Virus record (IMG/VR): IMGVR_UViG_2667527588_000007
Span: 1-41,084 of that record
Source of the DNA: a virus
Taxonomy: Duplodnaviria; Heunggongvirae; Uroviricota; Caudoviricetes
Strand: one strand, 5' to 3'
Length of the DNA stretch: 41,084 nt
The notes below the pieces were generated by a model that was not told the DNA's origin, ran no database searches, and was given only the letters and a program-made list of their open reading frames with translations. The position numbers and the translations under genes are program-made. Each line of letters opens with the position of its first letter. Within the stretch, counting starts at the first letter, position 1. Shown piece by piece: positions 1 through 40,949 of this stretch.

Positions 1-1254
1 ATGCTGGAACAAATGGGCATTGCCGCGAAGCAAGCCTCGTATAAATTAGCGCAACTCTCCAGCCGCGAAAAAAATCGCGTGCTGGAAAAAATCGCCGATG
101 AACTGGAAGCACAAAGCGAAATCATCCTCAACGCTAACGCCCAGGATGTTGCTGACGCGCGTGCCAATGGCCTTGGCGAAGCGATGCTTGACCGTCTGGC
201 ACTGACGCCCGCACGGCTGAAAGGCATTGCCGATGATGTGCGCCAGGTGTGTAACCTCGCCGATCCGGTGGGGCAGGTAATCGATGGCAGCGTACTGGAC
301 AGCGGCCTGCGTCTTGAGCGTCGTCGCGTACCGCTGGGGGTTATTGGCGTGATTTATGAAGCGCGCCCGAACGTGACGGTTGATGTCGCTTCGCTGTGCC
401 TGAAAACCGGTAATGCGGTGATCCTGCGCGGTGGCAAAGAAACGTGTCGCACTAACGCTGCAACGGTGGCGGTGATTCAGGACGCCCTGAAATCCTGCGG
501 CTTACCGGCGGGTGCCGTGCAGGCGATTGATAATCCTGACCGTGCGCTGGTCAGTGAAATGCTGCGTATGGATAAATACATCGACATGCTGATCCCGCGT
601 GGTGGCGCTGGTTTGCATAAACTGTGCCGTGAACAGTCGACAATCCCGGTGATCACAGGTGGTATAGGCGTATGCCATATTTACGTTGATGAAAGTGTAG
701 AGATCGCTGAAGCATTAAAAGTGATCGTCAACGCGAAAACTCAGCGTCCGAGCACATGTAATACGGTTGAAACGTTGCTGGTGAATAAAAACATCGCCGA
801 TAGCTTCCTGCCCGCATTAAGCAAACAAATGGCGGAAAGCGGCGTGACATTACACGCAGATGCAGCTGCACTGGCGCAGTTGCAGGCAGGCCCTGCGAAG
901 GTGGTTGCTGTTAAAGCCGAAGAGTATGACGATGAGTTTATGTCATTAGATTTGAACGTCAAAATCGTCAGCGATCTTGACGATGCCATCGCCCATATTC
1001 GTGAACACGGCACACAACACTCCGATGCGATCCTGACCCGCGATATGCGCAACGCCCAGCGTTTTGTTAACGAAGTGGATTCGTCCGCTGTTTACGTTAA
1101 CGCCTCTACGCGTTTTACCGACGGCGGCCAGTTTGGTCTGGGTGCGGAAGTGGCGGTAAGCACACAAAAACTCCACGCGCGTGGCCCAATGGGGCTGGAA
1201 GCACTGACCACTTACAAGTGGATCGGCATTGGTGATTACACCATTCGTGCGTAA
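1..1254 (+). CDS. proA: gamma-glutamyl phosphate reductase
   Basis: 417-aa ORF starting at position 1; colinear full-length match to enterobacterial ProA as recalled; followed by tRNA-Thr as in the E. coli proA-thrW locus. Confidence 0.95.
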
Positions 1255-1368: not shown

Positions 1369-1444
1369 GCCGATATAGCTCAGTTGGTAGAGCAGCGCAT
1401 TCGTAATGCGAAGGTCGTAGGTTCGACTCCTATTATCGGCACCA
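1369..1444 (+). tRNA. thrW: tRNA-Thr (anticodon CGU)
   Basis: 76-nt sequence GCCGATATAGCTCAGTTGGTAGAGCAGCGCATTCGTAATGCGAAGGTCGTAGGTTCGACTCCTATTATCGGCACCA; cloverleaf with anticodon loop TTCGTAA; encoded CCA end. Confidence 0.93.
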
Positions 1445-1458
1445 TTTAAATCAATAAG

Positions 1459-2622
1459 TTACACATCATTAGTACCTTCCTTATTTTTTGACTGGGACAA
1501 ATTTGGGACCGATGGGTTCAGGATCGAGTCTATTTGCCGTGCGTGCTCGGTAAGGTGATTAGGTGCAAGGTGAGCATATCGACGAACCATTTCGATAGAC
1601 TCCCAGCCTCCCATTTCCTGTAACACTGACAACGGGACTCCGGCTTGAACCAGCCAACTTGCCCAGGTGTGTCTCAGGTCGTGAAATCTGAAATCATCAA
1701 TACCAGCCCGTCTCAGCGCCGCTTTCCAGGCTGTGTTTGCGTCATACCGCATCTTCCTTACTGTTGGCGCTTTCGTTCCGTCTGGTTTGGTACAGCTTTC
1801 CTTGTACACAAATACCCAACGGTGATGATTCCCGATTTGTTTTTTCAAAACGCGACATGCAGTATCATTCAGCGCAACGCCGATTGCGCGGTTTGATTTA
1901 CTCTCTTCCGGGTTTATCCATGCCACTCGGCGCTGCATATCTATTTGTTGCCATTCAAGGTTGATGATGTTCGAGCGTCTTAAGCCTGTTGCCAGTGCAA
2001 ATTCAACAACAGACTTTAATGGCTCCGGACATTCATCAATCAGCCTTTGTGCTTCATGGGGCTCCAGCCAGCGGATCCGTTTATTCTTTGGTTGAGGCAC
2101 TTTAATAATTGGTGCCTTATCCAGCATTTTCCATTCACGCTCTGCGGCTCTTAGTAGGGCCTTTATAAATGAAAGATGCGTAGCCTTCGTTGCAACGGAC
2201 GCTGGTTTTGGCGTGTATTCTGGAACAGGTTTCCCTTTTTTTCTGCATGCTTCTGCCCTGAGTTTCCAGTTTTCCTCATGACGCCGGTTCGTCATTTTCT
2301 GCATTGCTGAATAAATTTTTGATTCAGTAATGTCTCTTAGTTGCATTCCTGCGAAATGTTGAAGCCAGAATCCGATCCGGCTTTTGTCATCGTCCAGTGA
2401 TTTTTTATGTGCTTTCTCTTCAAGCCACCTGACACATGCTTCCTCGAACGTTATATCAGGTATTTCACCAAGTTTACTGACCCGCCATGCTTCAGCCTTT
2501 AGCTTGTCATGGAGTTCTGTCGCCTGCCTTTTGTCCTTTGTTCCAAGAGACTGTTTAAATCTTTTACCGTTCGGCAATGTGAAACTGGCGTACCATATTT
2601 CACCTCTGCGGAAGAGTGACAT
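1459..2622 (-). CDS. int: tyrosine-type phage integrase
   Basis: 387 aa; C-terminal [39 protein letters not shown] (R..H-x-x-R..Y catalytic signature); GAGGAA RBS upstream of start; adjacent to tRNA. Confidence 0.92.
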
Positions 2623-13306: not shown

Positions 13307-14059
13307 ATGAACCTTGAAGCCTTACCGAAATATTACTCCCCGAAATCTCCAAAACTGAGCGATGACGCCCCGGCGACAGGCTCTGGTGGTTTAACGATTA
13401 CGGATGTGATGGCTGCGCAGGGGATGGTGCAGTCGAAAGCACCGCTTGGGTTTGCCTTATTCCTGGCAAAAGTTGGTGTTCAGGATCCTCAGTTTGCGAT
13501 TGAAGGTCTGCTCAATTACGCGATGGCACTGGATAACCCGACATTGAATAAATTGAGTGAAGAAACCCGGCTACAGATCATTCCTTACCTTGTGAATTTT
13601 GCCTTTGCTGATTATTCCAGGTCTGCGGCAAGTAAGGCTCGCTGTGAGCATTGTGCTGGTACTGGATTTCATAATGTATTGCGCGAAGTGGTGAAACACT
13701 CCAGAAGCGGGGAGTCTGTTATCAAGGAAGAGTGGGTGAAGGAACTATGTCAGCATTGTCATGGTAAGGGAGAAGTCAGCACAGCGTGCAGAGGGTGTAA
13801 GGGTAAAGGTATTGTCCTGGATGAAAAAAGAACCCGGCTTCATGGTACGCCTGTTTATAAGATTTGTGGGCGTTGCAATGGAAAACGGTTTAGTCGTTTA
13901 CCAACCACACTGGCGCGGCATCATGTCCAGAAACTGGTACCAGACCTGACGGATTATCAGTGGTACAAAGGATATGCAGATGTCATTGATAAACTGGTTA
14001 CAAAGTGCTGGCAGGAGGAATCTTACGCTGAAGCACAATTGAGAAAGGTGACAAGATAA
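13307..14059 (+). CDS. Q: late-gene antitermination protein Q
   Basis: 250 aa with CxxC...CxxC zinc-finger region (CEHCAGTG ... CQHCHGKG ... CRGCKGKG); positioned immediately upstream of late promoter and lysis genes. Confidence 0.75.
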   Translation: MNLEALPKYYSPKSPKLSDDAPATGSGGLTITDVMAAQGMVQSKAPLGFALFLAKVGVQDPQFAIEGLLNYAMALDNPTLNKLSEETRLQIIPYLVNFAFADYSRSAASKARCEHCAGTGFHNVLREVVKHSRSGESVIKEEWVKELCQHCHGKGEVSTACRGCKGKGIVLDEKRTRLHGTPVYKICGRCNGKRFSRLPTTLARHHVQKLVPDLTDYQWYKGYADVIDKLVTKCWQEESYAEAQLRKVTR

Positions 14060-14090
14060 GTGATCTTCGCCGAAAATGGTGACATCATGC

Positions 14091-14119
14091 TTGCAATTTT
14101 CAAAAAACATGGATAAGAT
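14091..14119 (+). promoter_or_regulatory. candidate late promoter (PR'-like)
   Basis: TTGCAA, 17-nt spacer, TAAGAT directly downstream of Q. Confidence 0.4.
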
Positions 14120-14167
14120 TTTCTCAACGATGGGCTTTATGTATCTGCTGTTGATAACCTTCAAGAA

Positions 14168-14190
14168 CTCGCCATTGAGCGGGTTTTTTA
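14168..14190 (+). terminator. candidate tR'-like terminator
   Basis: Short hairpin CTCGCC-ATTGA-GCGGG followed by TTTTTTATT. Confidence 0.35.
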
Positions 14191-14261
14191 TTGTGTAAAA
14201 ACAGAATGACGGTATTAATTAGTAATATAATTATTCGACCATACAACTAGGGGTCGAAAAA

Positions 14262-15047
14262 ATGTATGTTTTTGAGTTAATCAAGCCAGGCAGTAATCTT
14301 AAGTTTGAAAACAGAGAGTTAGAATGGACGTTTAATAACTTATTATCCCATTTAGAAACTGCATTTTATGATGCTAATGTAGCATTAAATTTATTCGAAC
14401 AGGAAAGAACTAAGAATAACAGTAAATTCGATAATATTTCTCAGACATGGCAAGCTGATGTACAGAAACGACAAGCACTGGAAATGCTGGTTCGTAAAGA
14501 GTTTGGTTATCAACCTTATGAATATTCAGAACAGGTTTTTTCAGAGGTCGAGCTACGTCTAAAAAGAGAAAAATGGAATAACGGTGAATATCCGTTGGCT
14601 CATCAACACAGATTGATCTTCTTACATGCAAAATCATTTCTCTACGCTTTGGATGCTATTGATAAATTTTTAAAGGTAATTTCAAAAGAAAATGGCGCGC
14701 CAGAGAACATTAAAAAATTGCATGAACAGCTTTCTAAAGACTTTCCGGATTTAAGAAAGGTAAGGAATTCAGCTCAACACATGGAAGACAGAGTTCGTGG
14801 GCTTGGTGCAGAGAAAGAACCAAAGCCAATAAAACTCAAACCTGTAAATAATATTCATGTTGTTGCACCTCAGGGGGCATTGATGTTGAATAACTTATTC
14901 GGAACTAAATTTGGGTGCACTATGGCTGATGGCTATTATGGTGAAGTAGATATTTCGACAGAGTCTTTGGCAAAGTTGCAAAATTTAATCCAAAAAGTTT
15001 TTAATTCCTTCAGTTGGGAAGGACCAAAGCAACACCTTCCCCGATAA
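14262..15047 (+). CDS. hypothetical protein with HEPN-like RNxxxH motif (candidate abortive-infection/defence moron)
   Basis: 261 aa, AT-rich, all-helical composition; motif RNSAQH fits HEPN R-x4-H; own TATAAT -10 (14226-14231) and own terminator (15065-15097); located between Q and holin. Confidence 0.6.
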   Translation: MYVFELIKPGSNLKFENRELEWTFNNLLSHLETAFYDANVALNLFEQERTKNNSKFDNISQTWQADVQKRQALEMLVRKEFGYQPYEYSEQVFSEVELRLKREKWNNGEYPLAHQHRLIFLHAKSFLYALDAIDKFLKVISKENGAPENIKKLHEQLSKDFPDLRKVRNSAQHMEDRVRGLGAEKEPKPIKLKPVNNIHVVAPQGALMLNNLFGTKFGCTMADGYYGEVDISTESLAKLQNLIQKVFNSFSWEGPKQHLPR

Positions 15048-15064
15048 CATTTTCTTTTTTATTG

Positions 15065-15943: not shown

Positions 15944-16319
15944 GCTGGTTATTGTTGCCTTCTTTGTTACCGTCATTGGTTCCTTCATCTGGTCTGTCGG
16001 GCATTACTACAGCAAATATCAGCACGAAAAGGAGCGTGCTGATGAGGCTGTACGAAATGCTGAATCGGCAACTGCCATTACCAATAACGTCCTGCAATCA
16101 ATACAAATCGTAAATACAGCACTGGAGGCTAGCCAGCATGCAAAACAACAAATCGCACTGGAGTCACAGAGAACCCAGGAAGATATCAAAGTGGCTGTTG
16201 CGAATGATGATTGCGCTTCACGTCCTGTGCCTGCTGCCGCTACTGACCGGTTGCGGAAGTACGCGGACAGTTTACGTGAGCACCCCAGTAGCACCACTGT
16301 CAACCACCCTAACTTCTGA
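15927..16319 (+). CDS. Rz: i-spanin Rz
   Basis: 130 aa; N-terminal TM helix then coiled-coil; overlaps endolysin stop; GGTGGGG RBS. Confidence 0.8.
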   Translation: MKLRYKLVIVAFFVTVIGSFIWSVGHYYSKYQHEKERADEAVRNAESATAITNNVLQSIQIVNTALEASQHAKQQIALESQRTQEDIKVAVANDDCASRPVPAAATDRLRKYADSLREHPSSTTVNHPNF

Positions 16320-16452
16320 AACACCGATTCCAATTATACCTAGTCCACTGACATATGGTGCTAGCCTAGACCTGAATGCAAGTTTGTTATCTGCATTAGG
16401 GCAGTGCAATAGAGATAAAAAGGCTATCCGCAGTATAAACAATGCTAGATGA
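16204..16452 (+). CDS. Rz1: o-spanin Rz1 (lipoprotein), overlapping Rz in +1 frame
   Basis: MMIALHVLCLLPLLTGC signal with lipobox LLTGC, Pro-rich mature part; starts inside Rz and extends past its stop. Confidence 0.7.
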   Translation: MMIALHVLCLLPLLTGCGSTRTVYVSTPVAPLSTTLTSETPIPIIPSPLTYGASLDLNASLLSALGQCNRDKKAIRSINNAR

Positions 16453-16467
16453 AGATTTTAATTTAAA

Positions 16468-16493
16468 TTGAAGATGCCTATTACTAGACATCT
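16468..16493. terminator. palindromic hairpin between converging Rz1 and minus-strand moron
   Basis: AAGATG-12 nt-CATCTT stem flanked by A/T-rich sequence on both sides. Confidence 0.35.
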
Positions 16494-16530
16494 TTATAAT
16501 TTATGCTCAAACCAAAGTGGATTTGTAATA

Positions 16531-16905
16531 TTAAAGACTATTTAGGAGACTCTGAATAATAGGCCATAAAGTTAATGTGTTTGCACCAGCTGAGTAAAAT
16601 CGCTCCATCAGTTGTAGAGGTGTTGATGACTGATTAAACTTGATATCATTTAAAATGTCGTATATTTCTTGTAGCTTCTCTGCACCAAGTTTATCGTTAA
16701 TTTCACTTAAGTTATTTTGTATGGCGATTTCTGCTTCTTTTATAAGCCGAACTGTTTCTGCTGAGTAATGAATATTGTTGGAAAGAAAAGTATTAGCTGA
16801 ATCAATAATTTCATAACCAACATCAGCACCAAATGATTTGTTTCCAATTATTTTGATGTTTTCGCATCCCTCAATGCGATAAGCAACGGTTTTCTTTTCA
16901 CTCAT
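16531..16905 (-). CDS. hypothetical protein (AT-rich minus-strand moron)
   Basis: 124-aa ORF antisense to the late operon, flanked by AT-rich intergenic DNA; weak AGGT RBS. Confidence 0.55.
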   Translation of the reverse strand: MSEKKTVAYRIEGCENIKIIGNKSFGADVGYEIIDSANTFLSNNIHYSAETVRLIKEAEIAIQNNLSEINDKLGAEKLQEIYDILNDIKFNQSSTPLQLMERFYSAGANTLTLWPIIQSLLNSL

Positions 16906-27320: not shown

Positions 27321-27469
27321 CGGCTGAATACCTCACTGATCGCTTCTTTGACTGCGCCAGCTACTGGCGCATTAATCCCTTCGAATTGCTGAATATGCCG
27401 ATCAGTGAAATTCCCTTGCTGGTCAGTCAGGCAAACAGGATAGAGCAGGAGAAACGCACACATGGCTGA
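27287..27469 (+). CDS. tail assembly chaperone -1 frameshift extension
   Basis: -1 frame ORF beginning at the slippery site (FFPPGLTAEY...) and ending 8 nt into tape measure gene. Confidence 0.6.
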   Translation: MACGWFFPPGLTAEYLTDRFFDCASYWRINPFELLNMPISEIPLLVSQANRIEQEKRTHG

Positions 27470-29294
27470 ATTTGAGCTTAAGGCGTTGATCACCGGTGTC
27501 GACAGGCTTTCTCCCGCGCTGTCGAAAATGCAAAAGAAAATCCGGGGATTTAAACGCCAGGCGGAAGAAGCGTCACAGGGTGGGCTGGCGCTTGGTGGCG
27601 GACTGGCAGCGGGTCTGACGCTTTCCCTGAAATCTTATGCCGATCAGGAAAACGCCGCCACCGGGCTGAAAGTCGCCATGATGGATGCGAACAGCGAGGT
27701 TGGAAAGAGCTTTCAGGACATCAATAAACTGGCTATTGGCCTGGGTAACCAGCTACCCGGTACAACGGCTGATTTCCAGAACATGATGCAGATGCTGGTG
27801 CGTCAGGGGATCCCGGCAGAAAACATTCTTGGTGGTGTGGGTAAAGCGACAGCTTATCTTGCGGTACAACTGAAAAAAACACCGGAAGCGGCTGCTGAGT
27901 TTGCTGCAAAGATGCAGGATGCTACCGGAACGGCGTCAGAAGACATGATGGGGCTGTTCGACACTATCCAGAAGGCGTTTTATCTGGGCGTTGACGATAC
28001 CAACATGTTGTCCTTCTTCACTAAAACCAGTTCTGTTCTGAAGATGGTGAATAAGGACGGACTTCAGGCTGCACAGAGCCTTGCCCCTATCAGCGTCATG
28101 ATGGATCAGATGGGGATGAACGGGGAGTCGGCAGGTAATGCCCTGCGAAAAGTTATCCAGTCCGGATTAAGCGTTAAGAAAATCAGGGACGTCAATAAAG
28201 TCATGGCCCGCCAGAAACTCGGGGTACAGCTCGATTTTACTGACGGCAAAGGAAGTTTTGGCGGTCTTGATAACATGTTCAGGCAACTGGCAAAGCTGCG
28301 AAAACTGACCGACGTTAAGCGAACAGGTGTACTTAAGGCAATATTTGGTGATGATGCCGAAACCCTTCAGGTGGTCAATGCACTAATCGATAAAGGAAAG
28401 GATGGCTACGATCAGATCCAGCAGAAGATGAATAAACAGGCCAGCCTGAATAAACGTGTTCAGGCCCAGCTTGGTACGCTGTCCAACCTGTGGGAGGCAA
28501 TGACGGGGACCGCAACTAACGGCCTTGCGGCTATTGGTGGCGCATTTTCTGGTGACGCCAAAAATATCACGCAATGGCTGGGGGAGTTAGGGGAAAAATT
28601 CACGAAGTTTGCGGATGAAAATCCCCGGGTTATTCGCGGCGTCGTCGGGCTTGCTGCCGGTCTTGCGATTCTGAAACTGGGATTGATGGGCGTTGGCGGT
28701 GCCATCAGTATTGTCAGCAGGATCATGTCGATGACGCCGATTGGAATGATTGCGACGGCGATAGCCCTGGCTGCGGGATTAATTATCACTAACTGGGATG
28801 TTGTCGGACCTTATTTCAAGAAGCTCTGGGAAACCATTGGTCCTTATTTTGAGGCTGGCTGGGAACTTCTGAAGAAGGTTTTTGCCTGGTCGCCGCTGGG
28901 GATGGTAATCAATAACTGGGGACCGGTTGTTAAGTGGTTTCAGGATATGTGGGACAAGCTGAAGCCAATTATTGAGTGGTTTACCGACAGTTCCGGTGAC
29001 ACGGTCGATGCCATTAACTCTGCGCAGTGGGGCGCGGGTGCTTATGATGCTTATGGGACGGGAATACTGGCGCGGGGATACACACCTTATCAGGCGGTAG
29101 ATCCGGCTCAGTCAAACAACGCCTCCGATGCCACAGGCTCGAATCCCTTCATGATTAATAAAGCTACCGCGCCAAAAGTTGATGGTGAGATCAAGGTATC
29201 ATTTATAAATATGCCACCAGATATGCGGGTTACGGAAACACGCTCCAGTGGCATTGATATAAATCACGATGTTGGCTATACCCGATTTTGGTAG
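27462..29294 (+). CDS. tail tape measure protein
   Basis: 610 aa, Ala/Gly-rich with hydrophobic C-terminal region; AGGAGA RBS; follows chaperone pair. Confidence 0.9.
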   Translation: MAEFELKALITGVDRLSPALSKMQKKIRGFKRQAEEASQGGLALGGGLAAGLTLSLKSYADQENAATGLKVAMMDANSEVGKSFQDINKLAIGLGNQLPGTTADFQNMMQMLVRQGIPAENILGGVGKATAYLAVQLKKTPEAAAEFAAKMQDATGTASEDMMGLFDTIQKAFYLGVDDTNMLSFFTKTSSVLKMVNKDGLQAAQSLAPISVMMDQMGMNGESAGNALRKVIQSGLSVKKIRDVNKVMARQKLGVQLDFTDGKGSFGGLDNMFRQLAKLRKLTDVKRTGVLKAIFGDDAETLQVVNALIDKGKDGYDQIQQKMNKQASLNKRVQAQLGTLSNLWEAMTGTATNGLAAIGGAFSGDAKNITQWLGELGEKFTKFADENPRVIRGVVGLAAGLAILKLGLMGVGGAISIVSRIMSMTPIGMIATAIALAAGLIITNWDVVGPYFKKLWETIGPYFEAGWELLKKVFAWSPLGMVINNWGPVVKWFQDMWDKLKPIIEWFTDSSGDTVDAINSAQWGAGAYDAYGTGILARGYTPYQAVDPAQSNNASDATGSNPFMINKATAPKVDGEIKVSFINMPPDMRVTETRSSGIDINHDVGYTRFW

Positions 29295-29322
29295 CCAGGA
29301 TTCCCCTCACAGGTATTGCTGG

Positions 29323-29350
29323 TTGTAAGTCATAAATAGAGTGATAGAAT
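29323..29350 (+). promoter_or_regulatory. candidate sigma70 promoter for tail-cluster moron
   Basis: TTGTAA, 16-nt spacer, TAGAAT upstream of the 29386 ORF. Confidence 0.4.
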
Positions 29351-29385
29351 TAATGCACATTTAGAAAAATGTTAATAGGCGAAAA

Positions 29386-29916
29386 ATGAAAGGCTATATC
29401 ACAGCAAGTGTAATTCTTGGAGCAGCGGCTATTTTTTCATCTCTCATAATCTCTGGCAACATCTCCTTTAAAGATGAACATATTATTCAGTTATCTGGAG
29501 GAGCCATAAAACTTGGTGATGTTTATAAAGAAAATAAATTGATAAGTGCAAAGATTATTTTTCCAGATAATCAGGGTGAACAGATTCTTGTTGTCGACGG
29601 CAATCCTGAAAACTTTAAGGAGGATTTTCAGGAGAAATTAAATAAAGTAATAAAAACTTTAAATGCGTCAAAGAAAAAAGATGAAGAGAAAGTTAGCCTG
29701 GATAATTTAAGTGTTATTGAAGAGTCTAAACTAGAGCTCGTTTCTGCGGTGCGTTACTCTGCTCAGTATGTTCCTATGTTTACTCTGACGCTGGACAAAA
29801 AAGAAATTACCATGCCTAAAAATACGGTAATATTTCCATTTGCCAGCGATGAAACAGCTAAGTATTTAAATGAACAACAGCAAAAGTATAAAGATTCGTT
29901 GTTTCTGACTCGCTAA
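29386..29916 (+). CDS. hypothetical membrane-anchored protein (AT-rich moron inside tail cluster)
   Basis: 176 aa; N-terminal hydrophobic anchor (ITASVILGAAAIFSSLIISG); Lys/Glu-rich; own promoter and terminator. Confidence 0.6.
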   Translation: MKGYITASVILGAAAIFSSLIISGNISFKDEHIIQLSGGAIKLGDVYKENKLISAKIIFPDNQGEQILVVDGNPENFKEDFQEKLNKVIKTLNASKKKDEEKVSLDNLSVIEESKLELVSAVRYSAQYVPMFTLTLDKKEITMPKNTVIFPFASDETAKYLNEQQQKYKDSLFLTR

Positions 29917-29934
29917 TTAATAAAATTCATTACA

Positions 29935-29965
29935 AGGCCACCTTCTAATAGGTGGCTTTTTTATT
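29935..29965 (+). terminator. intrinsic terminator after tail-cluster moron
   Basis: GGCCACC-TTCTAATA-GGTGGC hairpin followed by TTTTTTATTTT. Confidence 0.8.
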
Positions 29966-29977
29966 TTCGGAGTGTAT

Positions 29978-31306
29978 ATGACGTGGAAAGACAGGCTTCA
30001 GGATGCGTCATTTCGAGGTGTGCCGTTTAAGGTTGAAGAAGAAAGTGCGGGAACCGGTCGCCGTGTGGAAACACATGAATACCCGAACCGCGACAAGCCC
30101 TATACCGAAGATCTGGGAAAAGTCACTTTCCGCCCGTCCATCACAGCTTATGTGGTGGGAGATGACTGCTTTGACCAGCGCGATCGCCTGATTGAAGCGC
30201 TGAATAAACCAGGTCCCGGCACGCTTGTCCACCCGACATATGGTGAGCTGAAAGTCTGTGTTGACGGGGAAGTTCGGGTCAGCACATCGAAAAGTGAAGG
30301 GCGTATTGTCCGCTTTGACCTGAAGTTTGTCGAAGCGGGAGAACTCTCTTACCCCACATCAGGCGTGGCGACGGCGCAGACGCTGATGTCATCCTGTTCT
30401 GCACTGGATGACTGCATCAGTGACAGTTTCAGTAGTTTCAGTATCGATGGCGTGGCAGATTTTGTGCAGAACGACGTCGTCGGTAATGCCAGCACAATGC
30501 TTGGGTATGTTTCTGATGCGATGAAAGTGGTGGATTCTGCCGTATCGGATGCCGCCAGGCTGTTGCAGGGGGATATCTCGGTACTTCTGCCGCCGCCATC
30601 GTCAGGCAAAAATTTCGTTGAGCAGGTGCAGAAAATGTGGCGTACCGGGAAACGCCTTTATGGTAACGCCAGCGACCTGGTCACCATGATCAAAACGCTT
30701 TCCGGTGTCAGCCTCGGCAGCGATCTGCAACCGCGCGGCGTCTGGAAAACGGACAGTAAAACCACCGCCACGGCTACGCAGCAGCGTAACGTGGTTGCCA
30801 GCACCCTTCGTACGACCGCAATCAGCGAAGCGACGTATGCCGTCACCCGATTGCCTGCGCCAACAACTTCCGCGGTGATGCAGAATGCCGCAGTGGGGCA
30901 GGCAACAACACCTGCGCAGAGCACTGGCTGGCCTTCCGTCACGCATCCGGCACTGAACAATGCACCGGCGGTGAAAAACACAGTTGACCTGCCGACGTGG
31001 GAAGAACTGACTGACATTCGCGACACACTGAATACGGCAATTGATAAGGAGTTGTCCCGTACAACCAGTGATGCGCTGTTTCTGGCGCTGCGCCGGGTGA
31101 AAGCAGATCTGAATGCGGATATCAACACGCGCCTTGAACAGTCTGCACGGATCATTCAGCGCGCACCGGATGAGGTTTTACCCGCGCTGGTGCTGGCGGC
31201 GACCTGGTTTGATAACGCGGCGCGTGACGCGGACATTATTCGGCGTAATGCCATTACGCATCCCGGCTTTGTGCCGGTGATCCCTCTGAAGGTGCCAGTG
31301 CAATGA
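29978..31306 (+). CDS. DNA circulation protein (Mu gpN-like)
   Basis: ATG at 29978 with GGAG RBS 6 nt upstream; N-terminal region typical of Mu N family; follows tape measure. Confidence 0.7.
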   Translation: MTWKDRLQDASFRGVPFKVEEESAGTGRRVETHEYPNRDKPYTEDLGKVTFRPSITAYVVGDDCFDQRDRLIEALNKPGPGTLVHPTYGELKVCVDGEVRVSTSKSEGRIVRFDLKFVEAGELSYPTSGVATAQTLMSSCSALDDCISDSFSSFSIDGVADFVQNDVVGNASTMLGYVSDAMKVVDSAVSDAARLLQGDISVLLPPPSSGKNFVEQVQKMWRTGKRLYGNASDLVTMIKTLSGVSLGSDLQPRGVWKTDSKTTATATQQRNVVASTLRTTAISEATYAVTRLPAPTTSAVMQNAAVGQATTPAQSTGWPSVTHPALNNAPAVKNTVDLPTWEELTDIRDTLNTAIDKELSRTTSDALFLALRRVKADLNADINTRLEQSARIIQRAPDEVLPALVLAATWFDNAARDADIIRRNAITHPGFVPVIPLKVPVQ

Positions 31307-35628: not shown

Positions 35629-36060
35629 ATGGAAAAGACATATTATTTTAATCCCTCTGATTCGGGATTTTATATTTCACCAGATAGCCAAACCATTCCT
35701 GAGAACGCTACGAAAATAAACTTTACTATTTATTCTGAGTTCGCAGGAGTTGCATGGCCTGATGGTAAAATACTTGGTTCAGATAAAAATGGTTTTCCAG
35801 CATGGCAGGATGCGCCACCACTTACCAGCGAAGAATTAATCTCAATCGCTGAATCAAATAAACAGCGATTAGTTAATCAGGCCAACGAATACATGAACAG
35901 TAAACAATGGCCTGGTAAAGCGGCGATTGGTCGTCTGAAAGGTGAGGAACTGGCGCAATATAATTTGTGGCTGGATTATCTGGACGCACTGGAACTGGTC
36001 GATACTTCCGGTGCGCCAGATATTGAATGGCCTACTCCTCCGGCAGTTCAGGCCAGATGA
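35629..36060 (+). CDS. tail fibre assembly protein
   Basis: 143 aa; C-terminal ...DYLDALELVDTSGAPDIEWPTPP motif shared with the inverted copy on the minus strand. Confidence 0.8.
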   Translation: MEKTYYFNPSDSGFYISPDSQTIPENATKINFTIYSEFAGVAWPDGKILGSDKNGFPAWQDAPPLTSEELISIAESNKQRLVNQANEYMNSKQWPGKAAIGRLKGEELAQYNLWLDYLDALELVDTSGAPDIEWPTPPAVQAR

Positions 36061-36634
36061 CATCCGGCGCGGTGCTGGTATCCGTTGCCGTCACCGCGTC
36101 AATGTAATCCAGCACAGCGTTTAGTCGGGTGGTTTCTGTCTGCGTCAGCTTCCTCCCGGCCTGCAATTTCAGTTGAATCAGACTAATGGAAGCCATTGCA
36201 GTATCAATTAGTGACTGTCGCTGTACTTCTGCCGCTTTTACTGCGGCACCATATTGTGCCTCAGTATCTGTCACCCATTTCTCACCATCCCATTTATCGT
36301 ATGGCGTTAATGGGACGATAGTGGTTGTATTTTCAGGGTAATCACCCGGAGCTGTGATTTCTTTTGATTCTCCTGTTTCAGTGCTATAGACAAATTCACC
36401 ACGATGGTCTGGCACATATATCCACGAGTTAAAATCTTCAGAACGGCAAATTGCATAACCAGTTTTGTATGGGCCAGGGGCATCTAAACAGGAACATGCC
36501 GGAATGCCGACACCAATGGCAAGATATTCTGTTGATGTGGAAATATATTCCCGCGTTTCACCATCATAATTATAAACGGTTATGTCTCCCGCTTTTATGG
36601 CAATGAGTTCGTTATTTAAGACAACTTTATTCAT
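36032..36634 (-). CDS. alternative tail fibre assembly protein (inverted orientation)
   Basis: 200 aa on minus strand; C-terminal ...DYIDAVTATDTSTAPDVIWPELP paralogous to 35629-36060 product. Confidence 0.75.
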   Translation of the reverse strand: MNKVVLNNELIAIKAGDITVYNYDGETREYISTSTEYLAIGVGIPACSCLDAPGPYKTGYAICRSEDFNSWIYVPDHRGEFVYSTETGESKEITAPGDYPENTTTIVPLTPYDKWDGEKWVTDTEAQYGAAVKAAEVQRQSLIDTAMASISLIQLKLQAGRKLTQTETTRLNAVLDYIDAVTATDTSTAPDVIWPELPEE

Positions 36635-37089
36635 CAGGCAGCCCTCACGATATAATTAAAGGCAATGTTACGAGGTCGGTTTTCGTTTGCAGTTGGAACA
36701 ACTCTGGAAGCATCGAATGTTACTCGCTTTGCATAACCACCTTTAATTGAATCCGATGAAGCATCTCCGATGACGCTGGTTGTAAAAACGCCAGAATCAG
36801 AAGGATAGGTATTGAACCTGACATCCACTAATGCACCAATTATATTTCGAATGGCATCGCCCTGTGATGAAAGCAAGCTACGGTTAGTATCTATTCCTCT
36901 TCCGTCATCCCAGCCACGAATAAACTCACCACGTAAATCTGGCAATTTATTTGTCGGATAAACTTTTGCCAGTTCCGGATACTCTTCGGCAGAAAAAGGC
37001 GCACCATTGCATTTCAGCCAGCCTGTTGGCGGAGTGGCTGAAGGCCACGGAACAGGCACACCAACGGGTAATGCCGAACCTTCTCCCAA
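36634..37089 (-). CDS. alternative tail fibre C-terminal segment (promoterless; expressed only after inversion)
   Basis: 151-aa ORF beginning inside the right inversion site; would fuse in frame (…LGLGE/GSALPVG…) to the constant fibre part after inversion. Confidence 0.65.
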   Translation of the reverse strand: MGEGSALPVGVPVPWPSATPPTGWLKCNGAPFSAEEYPELAKVYPTNKLPDLRGEFIRGWDDGRGIDTNRSLLSSQGDAIRNIIGALVDVRFNTYPSDSGVFTTSVIGDASSDSIKGGYAKRVTFDASRVVPTANENRPRNIAFNYIVRAA

Positions 37090-37106
37090 ACCAACCTTTT
37101 AGAAAA
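37081..37106. repeat. right recombination site of invertible segment
   Basis: TTCTCCCAAACCAACCTTTTAGAAAA, reverse complement of left site; directly upstream of invertase remnant. Confidence 0.7.
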
Positions 37107-37159
37107 TGCAGTAATTCCGCTCAGATGGCATGATCCAAGCTTTTTAAGGGGCATTTCTC

Positions 37160-37498
37160 ATGCTCATCGGTTATGTACGTGTGTCAACAAATGACCAGAA
37201 CACCGCATTGCAACGAAACGCACTGGAGTGCGCAGGATGTGAACTGATATTCGAGGATAAGATCAGCGGCAGATGGGGGGGCAGTCAGGGGGTTGCCCAG
37301 CTCAATTTGTTTGATGAAAACGCGCCACGCCCGGGTAGTGAGAAACTGATGGAAGTGTTGGATCACCTCAACGCCAAAGACGGCAGGGGAACCTTGTACT
37401 TTACCAGGCAGGGTATCCAGCCACAGTTGCAGATGAAACGCGAGATGCTTTCACCTAGATATACAACGAGATATGATGACATATTAAGAGTTAAATAG
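37160..37498 (+). pseudogene. serine DNA invertase (Pin/Gin/Hin family) remnant: only the first 37 codons conserved
   Basis: MLIGYVRVSTNDQNTALQRNALECAGCELIFEDKISG matches invertase N-terminus including catalytic Ser; downstream sequence in all frames lacks the remaining catalytic core; break coincides with a G7 run. Confidence 0.7.
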
Positions 37499-37517: not shown

Positions 37518-38513
37518 ATGAAAGGGATATATTATGAGAATACTCGAACCTCTATACCGGGGTGGATATCAAACCTTCATGAAACTCAAAGGTTTGGTTA
37601 CGCTTATGAAACAAGTACTCACTTTGTTCATTTATATGGTAAAGCTGAACCTTTTAATGTCATATCAGTTGGCCTTACCGCAATACAAGGTAAAAGTGGG
37701 ACTCTAAATGATTGGGTTATAAATACATTTGGAGCAACTAACATCCAAACATTACAAAATGATATCGGACATGTTGTTGAAGGTGTCTGGAGACCATCTT
37801 TATATTATAGCGATGACATTCAAGGTGCGTTGTTAGTTGATCCGTTCGAGAAAATGTCGTCAGGACAAGCTCTGCGCAATCTTATTAATAAACTCGATGA
37901 ATTATTTTTGTACATTGAGCCAAGCATCACAGGTCTGAAAGCATATAGCCATAAATGCAGGGAGCTATTAATTTTGGCTTGTACAGAAGTTGAGAATCAG
38001 TGGGTGTCACTGATAAAAAAAACAAACCTAAATAATGTAGGGGCTAGATATACAACTAGGGACTATGTACGGCTTGCAGATAAATGTTTTTTAAAAGAAT
38101 ACAAGGTGAATTTTAAAAATTACTCAGGCTTAAGAGATTTCACACCATTTTTATCTTGGGTTCCGACTGCCTCTACTGGCTCTTTACCTTGGTACGATGC
38201 TTATAATGGAACTAAGCATGATAGGGAAGCAGGTTTTAATCTCGCATCATTGGAGAATGTGATGGATGCCTTATCTGCTTGTATAGTATTGTATTGTGTT
38301 AAATATGGACCTTATGATTTGGTGTCTGGTGGGGATCTGCTTTCAGGAACGTTTAACGAGCATTTTTCTCTTAGTTTCATAAATAGTGATAAAAGTAGCT
38401 ATTACGTTCCCGAATTGAATTTTAACGCAAACGCAATAACAGACTTGTGTGTGATTGACTGTTATAGAGAAAAACTCAACAAAGCATGGGTTACAGAACC
38501 TCTTGTTTTATAG
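37518..38513 (+). CDS. hypothetical protein (AT-rich accessory gene at invertase-proximal hotspot)
   Basis: 331 aa, GAGGTG RBS, AT-rich with Asn/Tyr-rich composition; occupies DNA that replaced the invertase 3' portion. Confidence 0.6.
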   Translation: MKGIYYENTRTSIPGWISNLHETQRFGYAYETSTHFVHLYGKAEPFNVISVGLTAIQGKSGTLNDWVINTFGATNIQTLQNDIGHVVEGVWRPSLYYSDDIQGALLVDPFEKMSSGQALRNLINKLDELFLYIEPSITGLKAYSHKCRELLILACTEVENQWVSLIKKTNLNNVGARYTTRDYVRLADKCFLKEYKVNFKNYSGLRDFTPFLSWVPTASTGSLPWYDAYNGTKHDREAGFNLASLENVMDALSACIVLYCVKYGPYDLVSGGDLLSGTFNEHFSLSFINSDKSSYYVPELNFNANAITDLCVIDCYREKLNKAWVTEPLVL

Positions 38514-39174
38514 GTAGTATTAATTCAGCACCTTGATTTTTTGTATTTCCCACGGCACGCGTCACGGCGTGCCAGATAAACGTGTCGGCAGACGCTGTAC
38601 CCTTAGCAACAATCTCCTCCACCACTCTACCTACGACATTCTGCCGTATCCACTCACGAGCTGCTTCCGGTGATAGCACCAGCGGCCGGCGATCATGAAT
38701 ATCTACCAGCCCTTTATCCGCAGCAGTAGTTACAATCAGGAACCCCTCAGCTTCATCGCCACGTTCAAATGGTGTGCTGCCAATAGCGGCCATGAATATA
38801 GGCTGGCCGTCAGCCCTGCGAATGAAGTAGGGCTGTTTTATAATGCCTTCGCGCTTCCATTCGAACCAACCATCAGCAAAGCAAATTGCACGTCCATGCA
38901 ACCAGAGAGGTTTGAACATTCGGCTGGTGGCCGCAGTTTCTGAGCGTGCGTTAATCAGCGGAGGTTTATTCCACCATCCGGGAGCGAATCCCCAGATAAC
39001 AGGATCGAGGTGCAACTGTTCGTCGCGTTCGCTCAAAAGCAGAACTTTGGTACCGGGTGCAACGTTGAATCGTCCAATTGGTTCTGGAACGTATGGGATG
39101 TCACGCTCAGCTTCTTCTGATAGGAGGGCAAGATAGTCTTCACGCGTCATTGATTGGGCGAAACGTCCGCACAT
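38491..39174 (-). CDS. SOS-response-associated peptidase (SRAP / YedK-like abasic-site processing protein)
   Basis: N-terminal MCGRFAQ with catalytic Cys2; 227 aa; GGAGG RBS. Confidence 0.8.
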   Translation of the reverse strand: MCGRFAQSMTREDYLALLSEEAERDIPYVPEPIGRFNVAPGTKVLLLSERDEQLHLDPVIWGFAPGWWNKPPLINARSETAATSRMFKPLWLHGRAICFADGWFEWKREGIIKQPYFIRRADGQPIFMAAIGSTPFERGDEAEGFLIVTTAADKGLVDIHDRRPLVLSPEAAREWIRQNVVGRVVEEIVAKGTASADTFIWHAVTRAVGNTKNQGAELILPIKQEVL

Positions 39175-39398: not shown

Positions 39399-39689
39399 AG
39401 ACACGTCGTATGCAAGAACTTGCTGCGGCTGGATGGTGGACTTTCGATAGTGCGAGTATTGAATGATGTCCAGCCGTTATTGATTTTACGTATTTTTTGC
39501 ATGAAAAGATTAGCACCTCATCCCACCGCTCCTCCATGATTTTACACCACTGTCTCTAGAGCTCTGTGTGCCAGAAGCGGAAGTTCATACCTCTAAGTGG
39601 ATATTTTGTTAAAATATGCCATCAAAATCCTTGCTACCTCATGGTTGACAGTGATAAAAGTTGCACAAATTACTGAGAGAGAAATTACA

Positions 39690-40127
39690 ATGAGTGGAGA
39701 TACCTCTGAGTTTCCTAATAAACTTCCCAGAAAGCCAATAGGTTGGCGTGAAGAATATAGTGATTTTACAGGTAGTATTATATTCTATATGATATTCCCG
39801 TTGCTTCCATTACTTTTTGAGTCAATTAACACAGGAACTCACCCTTCAATACAATCATTAACAATTACTGCATCAATATACTCTTTTTCCATCGGTGTAT
39901 CTTCTCGAGATAAAGCTATTTTTTGCTTAGGGATTTTTTGTGGTTTCATTCTCGCTTATCTTTACGGTAAAGTTAGTGAGCCAAAAGTTATTATATATAC
40001 CTGGTACTATGTAGTTACGGTGATACTACTGGCTGTAATATTTATATTTCATCTTCTCGAACGATTTAATAAACACGTGGTAGAATGTGAACCTGTTTTC
40101 TCCTTTAAGTTTACGAGAGGTATGTAA
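39690..40127 (+). CDS. hypothetical multi-pass membrane protein
   Basis: ATG at 39690 preceded by purine-rich GAGAGAGA and a TTGACA -35-like motif (39645-39650); AT-rich; several hydrophobic segments; track start at 39597 is GTG. Confidence 0.5.
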   Translation: MSGDTSEFPNKLPRKPIGWREEYSDFTGSIIFYMIFPLLPLLFESINTGTHPSIQSLTITASIYSFSIGVSSRDKAIFCLGIFCGFILAYLYGKVSEPKVIIYTWYYVVTVILLAVIFIFHLLERFNKHVVECEPVFSFKFTRGM

Positions 40128-40594
40128 TGGAGGATATTATATTTATGTATGCTGGGTTGATAGTGTCTTCTTTAGCGGCAATTGTAGGCTTAGCTACATC
40201 TATCATGCATACTCGTAAAAAAGTTAAAGCTAATGAAGAGCTTGCAACTGAAATGGCAAAGAGCTTTAGTGAGCTTGAATCTATCAATAAAAGCATAGGG
40301 GATTTGGAAGCGACAATTAAAAGGATAGATGAAGATGAATTAAAGTTAAGAATAGCAATTGAATCTTTAAAGGAAATGACTTCTGATGAAAAAAAAGAAT
40401 CTAGGGATATGTTGAAAAACATCGTTAATGATGAGGTGTTCATTAAAGTTCTTCTCGAAAGCTATAAAAAACTGGATACCCAGTCAAAGAAGGAGATTTA
40501 TTTGACTTTTTCCAAGTCGACAGATAGAGGCCTTTATCGATATATAAAAAGAATAGCTTCATCAGTACTCGATAACTTAATGGTTAAAATATAA
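40127..40594 (+). CDS. hypothetical membrane-anchored coiled-coil protein
   Basis: TAATG coupling to upstream gene; GAGAGG RBS; N-terminal TM helix followed by Glu/Lys-rich helical region; AT-rich. Confidence 0.55.
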   Translation: MEDIIFMYAGLIVSSLAAIVGLATSIMHTRKKVKANEELATEMAKSFSELESINKSIGDLEATIKRIDEDELKLRIAIESLKEMTSDEKKESRDMLKNIVNDEVFIKVLLESYKKLDTQSKKEIYLTFSKSTDRGLYRYIKRIASSVLDNLMVKI

Positions 40595-40949
40595 ATGCGT
40601 GCGCGCGAGATACAATTTCTCGCGCATTGTGTAACCGGCGACAAAACCCTGTTATCATTATAGCGACCCGTTTAGATGGGCCATTTGTGCCCCAACAGCT
40701 TCTGGGTATAGATTTCCTCGGCCCTGTATAGATACTTTGCTAAAGAGTATTTTAATGGTATTTTGCTTACGTACTATTCTTCTAACGAATGTCTGCCTTA
40801 TCCTGTGAGCTGCCTTCGCTCAGCATTGGCCTGTTTCTCGTTGATTTATATACTGCGACACTAACATAGGCGGATATGTCCGCTCCTCGCTCATAACAGA
40901 CATTCACTACAGTTATGGCAGAAAGGTATGCATGCTGGGTGGGGAAAGT

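Follow-up and report, generated by a model that had tools for sequence, protein, structure and literature searches.

A 176-codon gene lodged between the tape measure gene and the gp43-like gene of an E. coli prophage is a facultative moron carried in a recombination-permissive exchange slot of the tail operon, rather than a part of the tail. This conclusion is firmly supported by comparison with related phages. Superinfection exclusion at the DNA entry step is tentatively put forward, by analogy with known systems, as the likeliest role of its product.

The window, that is, the whole stretch of 41,084 nt that was analyzed, is a complete prophage adjoining a tRNA-Thr(CGT) gene at 1369..1444. 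Beside this tRNA gene lies a host ORF of 417 aa (1..1254), which we take to be proA from its position at the thrW site, and a minus-strand ORF of 387 aa (1459..2622) abutting the tRNA gene is read, by position, as the integrase. The host phage is an SfV/SfII-like temperate myovirus of E. coli at thrW with a tail of the Mu type. Its tail module shares 93-97% DNA identity with that of the Shigella phages SfII, SfI, and SfV and the E. coli phages SKA5 and vB_EcoM-689R6, and its neighboring tail genes abut or overlap each other. The gene under study, hereafter the cargo gene, and its surroundings comprise the following features:

27462..29294, plus strand: tail tape measure protein (TMP) gene, the left flank (PF10145, PhageMin_Tail, E 9e-27).
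29295..29950, plus strand: variable cargo cassette, delimited by homology to SfII and SKA5 that stops at the TMP stop codon and resumes in the T run of the terminator.
29323..29350, plus strand: putative sigma-70 promoter-like element, TTGTAA-16-TAGAAT with a TG extended -10 (promoter scan).
29377..29381, plus strand: weak Shine-Dalgarno-like AGGCG, 6 nt 5' of the ATG (direct sequence reading).
29386..29916, plus strand: cargo gene, 176 aa, phrog_5485, WP_000679479.1 'hypothetical protein' (ORF, PHROG match, and RefSeq).
29934..29969, plus strand: intrinsic terminator with a 10-bp stem, a 6-nt loop, and a T run, the hairpin itself spanning 29934..29959 (folding and shuffles).
29978..31306, plus strand: Mu gp43/N-like DNA circularization gene, the right flank (PF07157, DNA_circ_N, E 4e-34).

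The cargo ORF begins with ATG and is the sole ORF of at least 40 aa, on either strand, between the TMP stop at 29294 and gp43. The start of gp43 is ATG 29978 in RefSeq (coordinates obtained via locus L005), and the longest ORF call reaches GTG 29972. A first-pass annotation of the locus had described a Lys/Glu-rich protein of 176 aa with an N-terminal hydrophobic anchor, encoded by a gene much more AT-rich than the flanking tail genes. Both descriptions hold: the ORF, its residue counts (21 Lys, 14 Glu, 10 Asp, and no Cys), and the Kyte-Doolittle profile agree with the first, and GC content agrees with the second, being 0.343 in the cargo gene versus 0.51-0.59 in the sheath, tube, TMP, gp43, and gp44 genes. 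At third codon positions the corresponding values are 0.299 versus 0.56-0.65.

Several other regions of the window are similarly low in GC (0.34-0.38), namely 13800..15050 (ORF 14262..15047), 16200..16900 (ORF 16531..16905, minus strand), 37518..38513, and 39600..40800. One of these AT-rich islands lies just upstream of the likely lysis-gene region, as placed by comparison with a related prophage, and another is close to the window's right end; their ORFs have no Pfam matches, and they look like additional morons or accessory genes. The tail-fiber region at 35629..37498 contains two oppositely oriented tail-fiber assembly genes and a minus-strand fragment of a collar-domain fiber, and looks like an invertible segment. 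In an ORF at 37160..37498, a DUF4113 (UmuC C-terminal-like) segment follows only ~39 N-terminal residues of a resolvase/invertase; the invertase beside the fiber region thus looks truncated, and a SRAP-family gene follows on the minus strand at 38491..39174.

Database searches place the cargo protein in a family and assign it no function. It matches phrog_5485 with E 3.8e-108, residues 1-176 aligning with profile positions 1-176 of 176, and both notable PHROG matches (phrog_5485 and phrog_34391) are families without an assigned function. A third PHROG match, to an endonuclease family, is at chance level (E 0.014) and was set aside, and the PHROG search returned no family annotated as exclusion. 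Scans at E values up to 1 against Pfam-A (YebO included) and PADLOC-DB 2.0 yielded no family and no defense family, respectively; the NCBIfam search gave nothing useful, and sequence and profile searches of the PDB gave no match below E 0.7. For the cassette as a whole, Rfam returned sub-threshold terminator-like leader matches only. The cargo gene was not matched by tblastn in 50,697 GenBank phage records and is therefore known only from prophages and metagenomes. The literature on the RefSeq accession, the TMP/gp43 slot, and the morons of the SfV group contained nothing concerning this gene; the moron described in the SfIV paper is another one, located between Q and the lysis genes.

The optional nature of the cargo gene is evident from phages whose flanking genes are nearly the same. 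The TMP gene is 97% identical in DNA to those of SfII and SKA5 up to its stop codon, and the blastn breakpoints against these two phages fall at window positions 29288/29294 and 29951/29954. In SfII, SfI, SfV, and SfIV, the TMP and gp43 genes are adjacent, parted only by a short terminator-bearing spacer. SKA5 carries in the same slot an unrelated protein of 170 aa with a signal peptide, and vB_EcoM-720R4 carries another unrelated protein, of 162 aa and also with a signal peptide, despite flanks that are 97-98% identical. A survey anchored on gp43 rather than on the cargo took in 80 IMG/VR contigs whose gp43 shows 98% identity or more, together with 16 GTDB genome loci, and the TMP-to-gp43 interval was measured in each. 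The IMG/VR contigs were distributed as follows:

37 of 80: slot empty (54 nt).
20 of 80: slot with this cargo gene.
15 of 80: slot with the SKA5-type gene.
5 of 80: slot with a 148-aa minus-strand gene (N-terminal TM helix, tRNA_anti-like OB fold, PF12869).
3 of 80: interval not measurable, leaving 77 scorable.

More distant relatives carry further cargos:

Citrobacter (L019): 145-aa protein with two TM helices.
Buttiauxella (L023): 66-aa protein with two TM helices.
Serratia (L027): 140-aa lipoprotein with an LSAC lipobox.
Locus L021: 134-aa bacterial PH-domain protein.

At locus L020 the gap between TMP and gp43 is zero. Altogether, at least eight unrelated cargo families occupy the slot, on either strand (window 29295..29971; L002 1896-2552; L004 1817-2425; L017, L019, L021, L023, L027, and L044). 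Seven of eight are envelope-targeted by virtue of a signal peptide, a lipobox, or TM helices, which corresponds to a rough binomial P of 0.004 if 35% of proteins are presumed to be envelope-targeted, a fraction that is assumed rather than measured. Searches of the other slot cargos against PADLOC gave no credible match.

The suggestion in the first-pass annotation that a moron interrupts the tail operon is thus sustained. Comparison of the tail clusters of related phages, which it had proposed as a check, finds the slot empty, refilled, or holding this gene; far from being an integral tail component of comparable GC content across relatives, the gene (GC 0.34, one predicted TM helix) is absent or replaced where the flanking tail genes are 97-99% identical. 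Several features expected of a moron are present, namely an extra gene between otherwise adjacent genes, a distinct composition, and a terminator on the 3' side, the last of these belonging to the slot.

Of 5426 complete E. coli genomes, 1094 contain gp43 (1227 places in total) and 179 contain this cassette (184 places); the SKA5-type cassette occupies 86 places. In 180 of 181 E. coli records, identity across the cassette is 99% or higher, and the lysogen TB06052 matches window 29295-30600 with 100% identity. Pairwise diversity among 22 carriers is about five times lower in the cassette (0.0032) than in each flank (0.017), and because the cassette is less diverse than its flanks, the pattern fits a recent spread by recombination through the conserved flanking sequences. 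Plasmid records account for four of the 184 places, and in three records the cassette occurs twice. In E. coli EC21Z-014 (NZ_CP101274.1 871604-873781), the match to the cassette and gp43 falls into two parts, and the annotation places an IS5-family transposase within it.

The regulatory signals assigned to the gene by the first-pass annotation, a promoter-like element of its own and an intrinsic terminator, fare differently from each other in part. The promoter-like TTGTAA-16-TAGAAT is indeed present, but a scan of the region found 3 sites versus 2.5 expected from shuffles, so the match by itself is no more than chance, and an equivalent conserved site sought in the homologous loci L006, L010, and L002 was not found. 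At L117 the gap upstream of the cargo homolog is just 34 nt, and an independent promoter is therefore not family-wide. The terminator, by contrast, is strong: at -15.6 kcal/mol (z = -4.4), the hairpin is more stable than every one of 200 shuffled sequences. What does not stand is its assignment to the gene, since a hairpin and T run directly 5' of the gp43 ribosome-binding site also occur in cargo-free SfII and in Yersinia (L028). The same arrangement is found at this position in slots with other plus-strand cargos, the stem sequences differing, and where the cargo is on the minus strand the hairpin instead lies directly after the TMP stop. The hairpin in the SfII spacer had already been annotated by the SfII authors. 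As empty slots have an equivalent terminator, it is a property of the slot and not unique to the cargo gene, and the slot looks like a terminator-bounded intergenic site. Even without cargo (SfII, L001 1911-1949; L028), the terminator between TMP and gp43 keeps a fixed position, with a stem that varies by lineage.

Topology prediction, another check proposed in the first-pass annotation, returned one N-terminal TM helix followed by a domain predicted to face the periplasm:

29389..29454, plus strand: predicted single transmembrane helix, a signal anchor with N-in orientation, codons 2-23 (Kyte-Doolittle, AlphaFold, and family pattern).
29482..29898, plus strand: predicted periplasmic alpha/beta domain, codons 33-171, in which four strands precede a first helix and two further strands a second.

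Hydrophobicity averaged over 19 residues peaks at residues 5-23 (mean Kyte-Doolittle value 2.11), and there is no second hydrophobic segment. Exactly one hydrophobic helix, located at the N terminus, is present in 49 of 50 family members, and in 48 of 50 the flank on its N-terminal side is more positive than that on its C-terminal side; a positive N flank combined with a single N-terminal helix predicts an N-in/C-out orientation with a periplasmic C-terminal domain. AlphaFold2, run with a 50-sequence alignment, gave a model with pLDDT 91.6 and pTM 0.76, in which helices span residues 2-23, 74-93, and 149-171 and strands span 33-36, 39-42, 46-58, 65-72, 114-126, and 132-143. A search for structural neighbors of this confident model returned none that were informative. 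The product is accordingly modeled as a bitopic inner-membrane protein with an N-terminal helix and a predicted periplasmic alpha/beta domain of ~150 residues. A lipoprotein was considered and rejected, as the protein has no Cys and hence no lipobox. A signal anchor is favored over a cleavable signal peptide because the hydrophobic stretch is ~20 residues long and the modeled helix has 22 residues; weak -3/-1 cleavage sites occur after residues 23 and 24.

The cargo protein belongs to a wider family that extends beyond the Mu-type tail. An exhaustive HMMER search recovered 79 cluster representatives, 51 of them below 1e-10, and members are nearly all 166-203 aa long and matched over their full length. 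Conservation is complete at G39, G44, and Y124 and nearly complete at L43, E49, N93, and L134. All 50 aligned members match phrog_5485; Pfam searches with the same 50 gave scattered chance matches and no consistent family, and scans of IMG/VR with distant members as queries gave no match. One member, 29% identical, resides in a contractile tail of the E217/PhiTE type, which is unrelated to the Mu type, where it lies between the hub genes (Dit_like, Pam3_gp18, and E217_gp41) and the spike/Apex gene. Other members are located on small integrative islands in Pseudomonas-like genomes, in the neighborhood of a serine recombinase, an Mrr-like nuclease, a DUF5906 protein, an integrase, and other secreted small proteins. 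A chromosomal member on a 1.26-Mb contig is found between an omptin protease gene and the gpx/paa genes. This chromosomal gene (L124 5627..7528; L122 5615..7528) is directly downstream of the gene for the omptin-family outer-membrane protease and has a GC content of 0.32 versus ~0.5-0.58. Because some members are chromosomal or on islands, outside phages, the ancestral function of the family may have been a host envelope function.

Within the TMP/gp43 slot itself, the association is old. The slot is filled in Leclercia and Lelliottia prophages by homologs with 53-56% identity, in Mangrovibacter by a homolog with 38% identity, and in a metagenomic phage by one with 31%. In these slot-sharing relatives, identity to the window is 63-76% for the sheath, 79-88% for the tube, and 51-83% for gp44; compared with the 31-56% of the cargo, these higher values indicate that the cargo evolves faster than the surrounding structural genes. 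The dN/dS ratio between L006 and L013 is 0.078, with a cargo dS of 1.07 versus 0.2-0.44 in the flanks and divergence that is saturating, and by this sequence-based estimate the gene is under purifying selection. The TMPs of two Leclercia phages differ widely in their identity to that of the window (39% and 79%), yet the cargo proteins of the two are nearly alike (dN 0.08), and near-identity beside such different TMPs shows that the cargo is not tied to one TMP allele. The gene shares the strand of the tail operon at each of the 29 Mu-type loci examined. In Leclercia and Lelliottia (L006 10013..11808; L007, L008, L009, and L013), two extra genes encoding proteins of ~503-520 aa and 94 aa are found between gp43 and the gp44-like hub gene. 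They have no Pfam matches and are missing in the window and in L010, and the gp43/gp44-like junction is possibly another site of variable gene content in this tail module.

The cargo gene lies 13-22 GC points below its neighbors in every enterobacterial-type context examined. Recent acquisition was considered as the cause of this AT-richness and ruled out, as the slot homologs at 31-56% identity are equally AT-rich. Because such deep homologs in the slot stay AT-rich, low GC is a maintained property of the family.

The first-pass annotation had named the gene a candidate for exclusion or defense, which remains a reasonable hypothesis. The function proposed here for the cargo protein, exclusion of superinfecting phages at DNA entry, is favored because the slot collects envelope-acting genes, because the family recurs among the TMP, hub, and spike genes of two unrelated contractile tails, and because HK97 gp15 and P22 SieA provide close precedents. 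It is disfavored because homology to known exclusion or defense proteins is lacking and because some family members are chromosomal or island-borne. Expression from a repressed prophage is hypothetical, the promoter match being at chance level and not conserved, and tight co-evolution with the TMP is disfavored by the near-identical Leclercia cargos beside divergent TMPs. A second SfV-type gp43 copy was present in 4 of the 60 best-matching carrier chromosomes versus a background of ~10% (P = 0.23, in a phylogenetically non-independent sample and irrespective of the order of acquisition); these crude counts give no signal of kin-phage exclusion, and three records carry the cassette itself twice.

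Being co-oriented with the late tail operon, the gene should be expressed late in lytic growth, and it might also be transcribed in the lysogen from a weak promoter of its own, with the slot terminator shielding the baseplate genes from such transcription. In the exclusion model, the periplasmic domain would interfere with the TMP, hub, or spike proteins of an incoming contractile-tail phage, or with a host factor, and thereby block its crossing of the periplasm and inner membrane; the target of exclusion is proposed by analogy only. A broader and doubtful extension is that phrog_5485 as a whole represents an unrecognized family of entry blockers, anchored in the membrane and facing the periplasm, that is specific to temperate phages with contractile tails and kept linked to the TMP, hub, and spike genes, whose products are the first into the periplasm, with the TMP/gp43 junction serving as a dedicated exchange hotspot for envelope-acting exclusion genes. 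Were this extension true, AT-richness maintained over deep divergence would reflect regulated expression, such as silencing of the H-NS type, rather than recent transfer.

The alternative that survives best, possible if less probable than exclusion, is that the cargo protein is a lysogenic-conversion or host-fitness factor that alters envelope physiology (tolerance of stress, colicins, serum, or antimicrobials, or adhesion) and does not act on phages. Precedents for such a factor are the classic morons lom and bor (PMC3594210). The purely chromosomal member between the omptin protease and gpx/paa genes, the members on non-phage integrative islands beside other secreted proteins, and the lack of similarity to known defense proteins in PADLOC all accord with such a role. 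It is harder to reconcile with the recurrence of the TMP/hub/spike-block position in two unrelated contractile-tail architectures, with co-orientation with the late operon in 29 of 29 loci, and with a family in which no lysogen-active promoter is evident.

Co-orientation instead accords with a further and unlikely alternative, in which the product is a late lytic-cycle accessory made with the tail proteins by read-through and conditions the envelope of the dying cell. It could possibly stop secondary infection or the wasteful injection of progeny into already infected cells, or tune lysis. The gene is always on the tail-operon strand, an upstream gap as short as 34 nt makes transcription in some members probably dependent on the late operon, and the slot terminator would be read through by a Q antiterminator, as follows from lambdoid late transcription; a Q-family gene is annotated in the related EC1515 prophage. 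Against this, the gene is dispensable, as 37 of 77 scorable close relatives have an empty slot, among them the viable isolates SfII, SfV, and SfI. Such a role also overlaps with exclusion and does not exclude it.

That the product is a non-essential part of the tail or baseplate, structural or acting in assembly, is highly improbable and already largely refuted. Retention of the TMP/gp43 position down to 31% identity, together with the occurrence of a member inside another tail module, might have suggested it, but the gene is absent or replaced in phages with 97-99% identical tail genes, an N-terminal signal anchor would route the protein to the membrane, the gene departs from the module in composition in all enterobacterial-type contexts examined, and the family also occurs outside phages. 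That the gene is a decaying or selfish filler ORF without function, to which the want of any annotated function or domain might point, is scarcely credible given a dN/dS of ~0.08 at saturating divergence, full-length homologs with conserved motifs in 79 sequence clusters, and a compact, confidently predicted fold.

Morons in tail operons and membrane exclusion proteins are already known. The additions made here are an uncharacterized and widespread family whose fold is predicted with confidence and lacks a solved relative, the deep positional link of this family to tail entry genes, and the identification of the TMP/gp43 junction as a small hotspot for cargo genes. Phage resistance and host-fitness traits have a main source in prophage morons, most of which are unnamed. 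To our knowledge, few entry-blocking proteins are known for contractile-tail phages; the slot behaves as a small exchange site for envelope-acting genes and offers about eight candidate exclusion genes against phages of this kind. For annotation, the TMP-gp43 interval in such phages should be treated as accessory rather than structural.

Superinfection exclusion by envelope-located phage proteins has several well-known representatives, including T4 Imm and Sp, T5 Llp, and Cor of phi80 and N15, which stop entry or receptor use. The genes for Llp and Cor lie in or beside tail or receptor-binding genes. Unlike the lipoproteins Llp, Cor, and Ltp, the cargo protein has no Cys and hence no lipobox, and it has no similarity to any annotated exclusion PHROG. 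Its full-length match to phrog_5485 provides a family name and no function. A tail-assembly blocker of the Tai/Tab type was also considered and set aside: no sequence link to such proteins was seen, and Tai genes are mostly sited elsewhere, the Tai paper placing most of them upstream of the packaging module.

In P22, the prophage-encoded inner-membrane protein SieA blocks the conduit through which related phages deliver their DNA across the periplasm, its targets being podovirus ejection proteins (PMC10883804). The entry-blocking mechanism proposed for the cargo protein would, by analogy, be of the same kind. Searches of Pfam, PHROGs, and PADLOC returned no homology of the cargo protein to a known exclusion family. 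SieA is, moreover, polytopic and encoded outside the tail operon.

HK97 is a siphovirus, in contrast to the host phage with its contractile Mu-type tail, and its gp15 is presumably much smaller than the cargo protein and devoid of a comparable periplasmic domain of ~150 residues. No sequence relation to HK97 gp15, a YebO-related protein, or to YebO itself was detected by Pfam at E values up to 1, and the slot described here is downstream of the TMP gene, whereas gp15 is upstream. Gp15 is nevertheless a close parallel in arrangement, as an inner-membrane exclusion protein encoded beside the TMP gene (PMC3594210). Like gp15, the cargo gene is a moron of atypical GC content situated in a tail operon directly beside the TMP gene, its product is an inner-membrane protein (here by prediction), and it has chromosomal relatives outside prophages (PMC3594210). 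If exclusion is its role, the likeness would extend to mechanism, with DNA entry blocked at the inner membrane.
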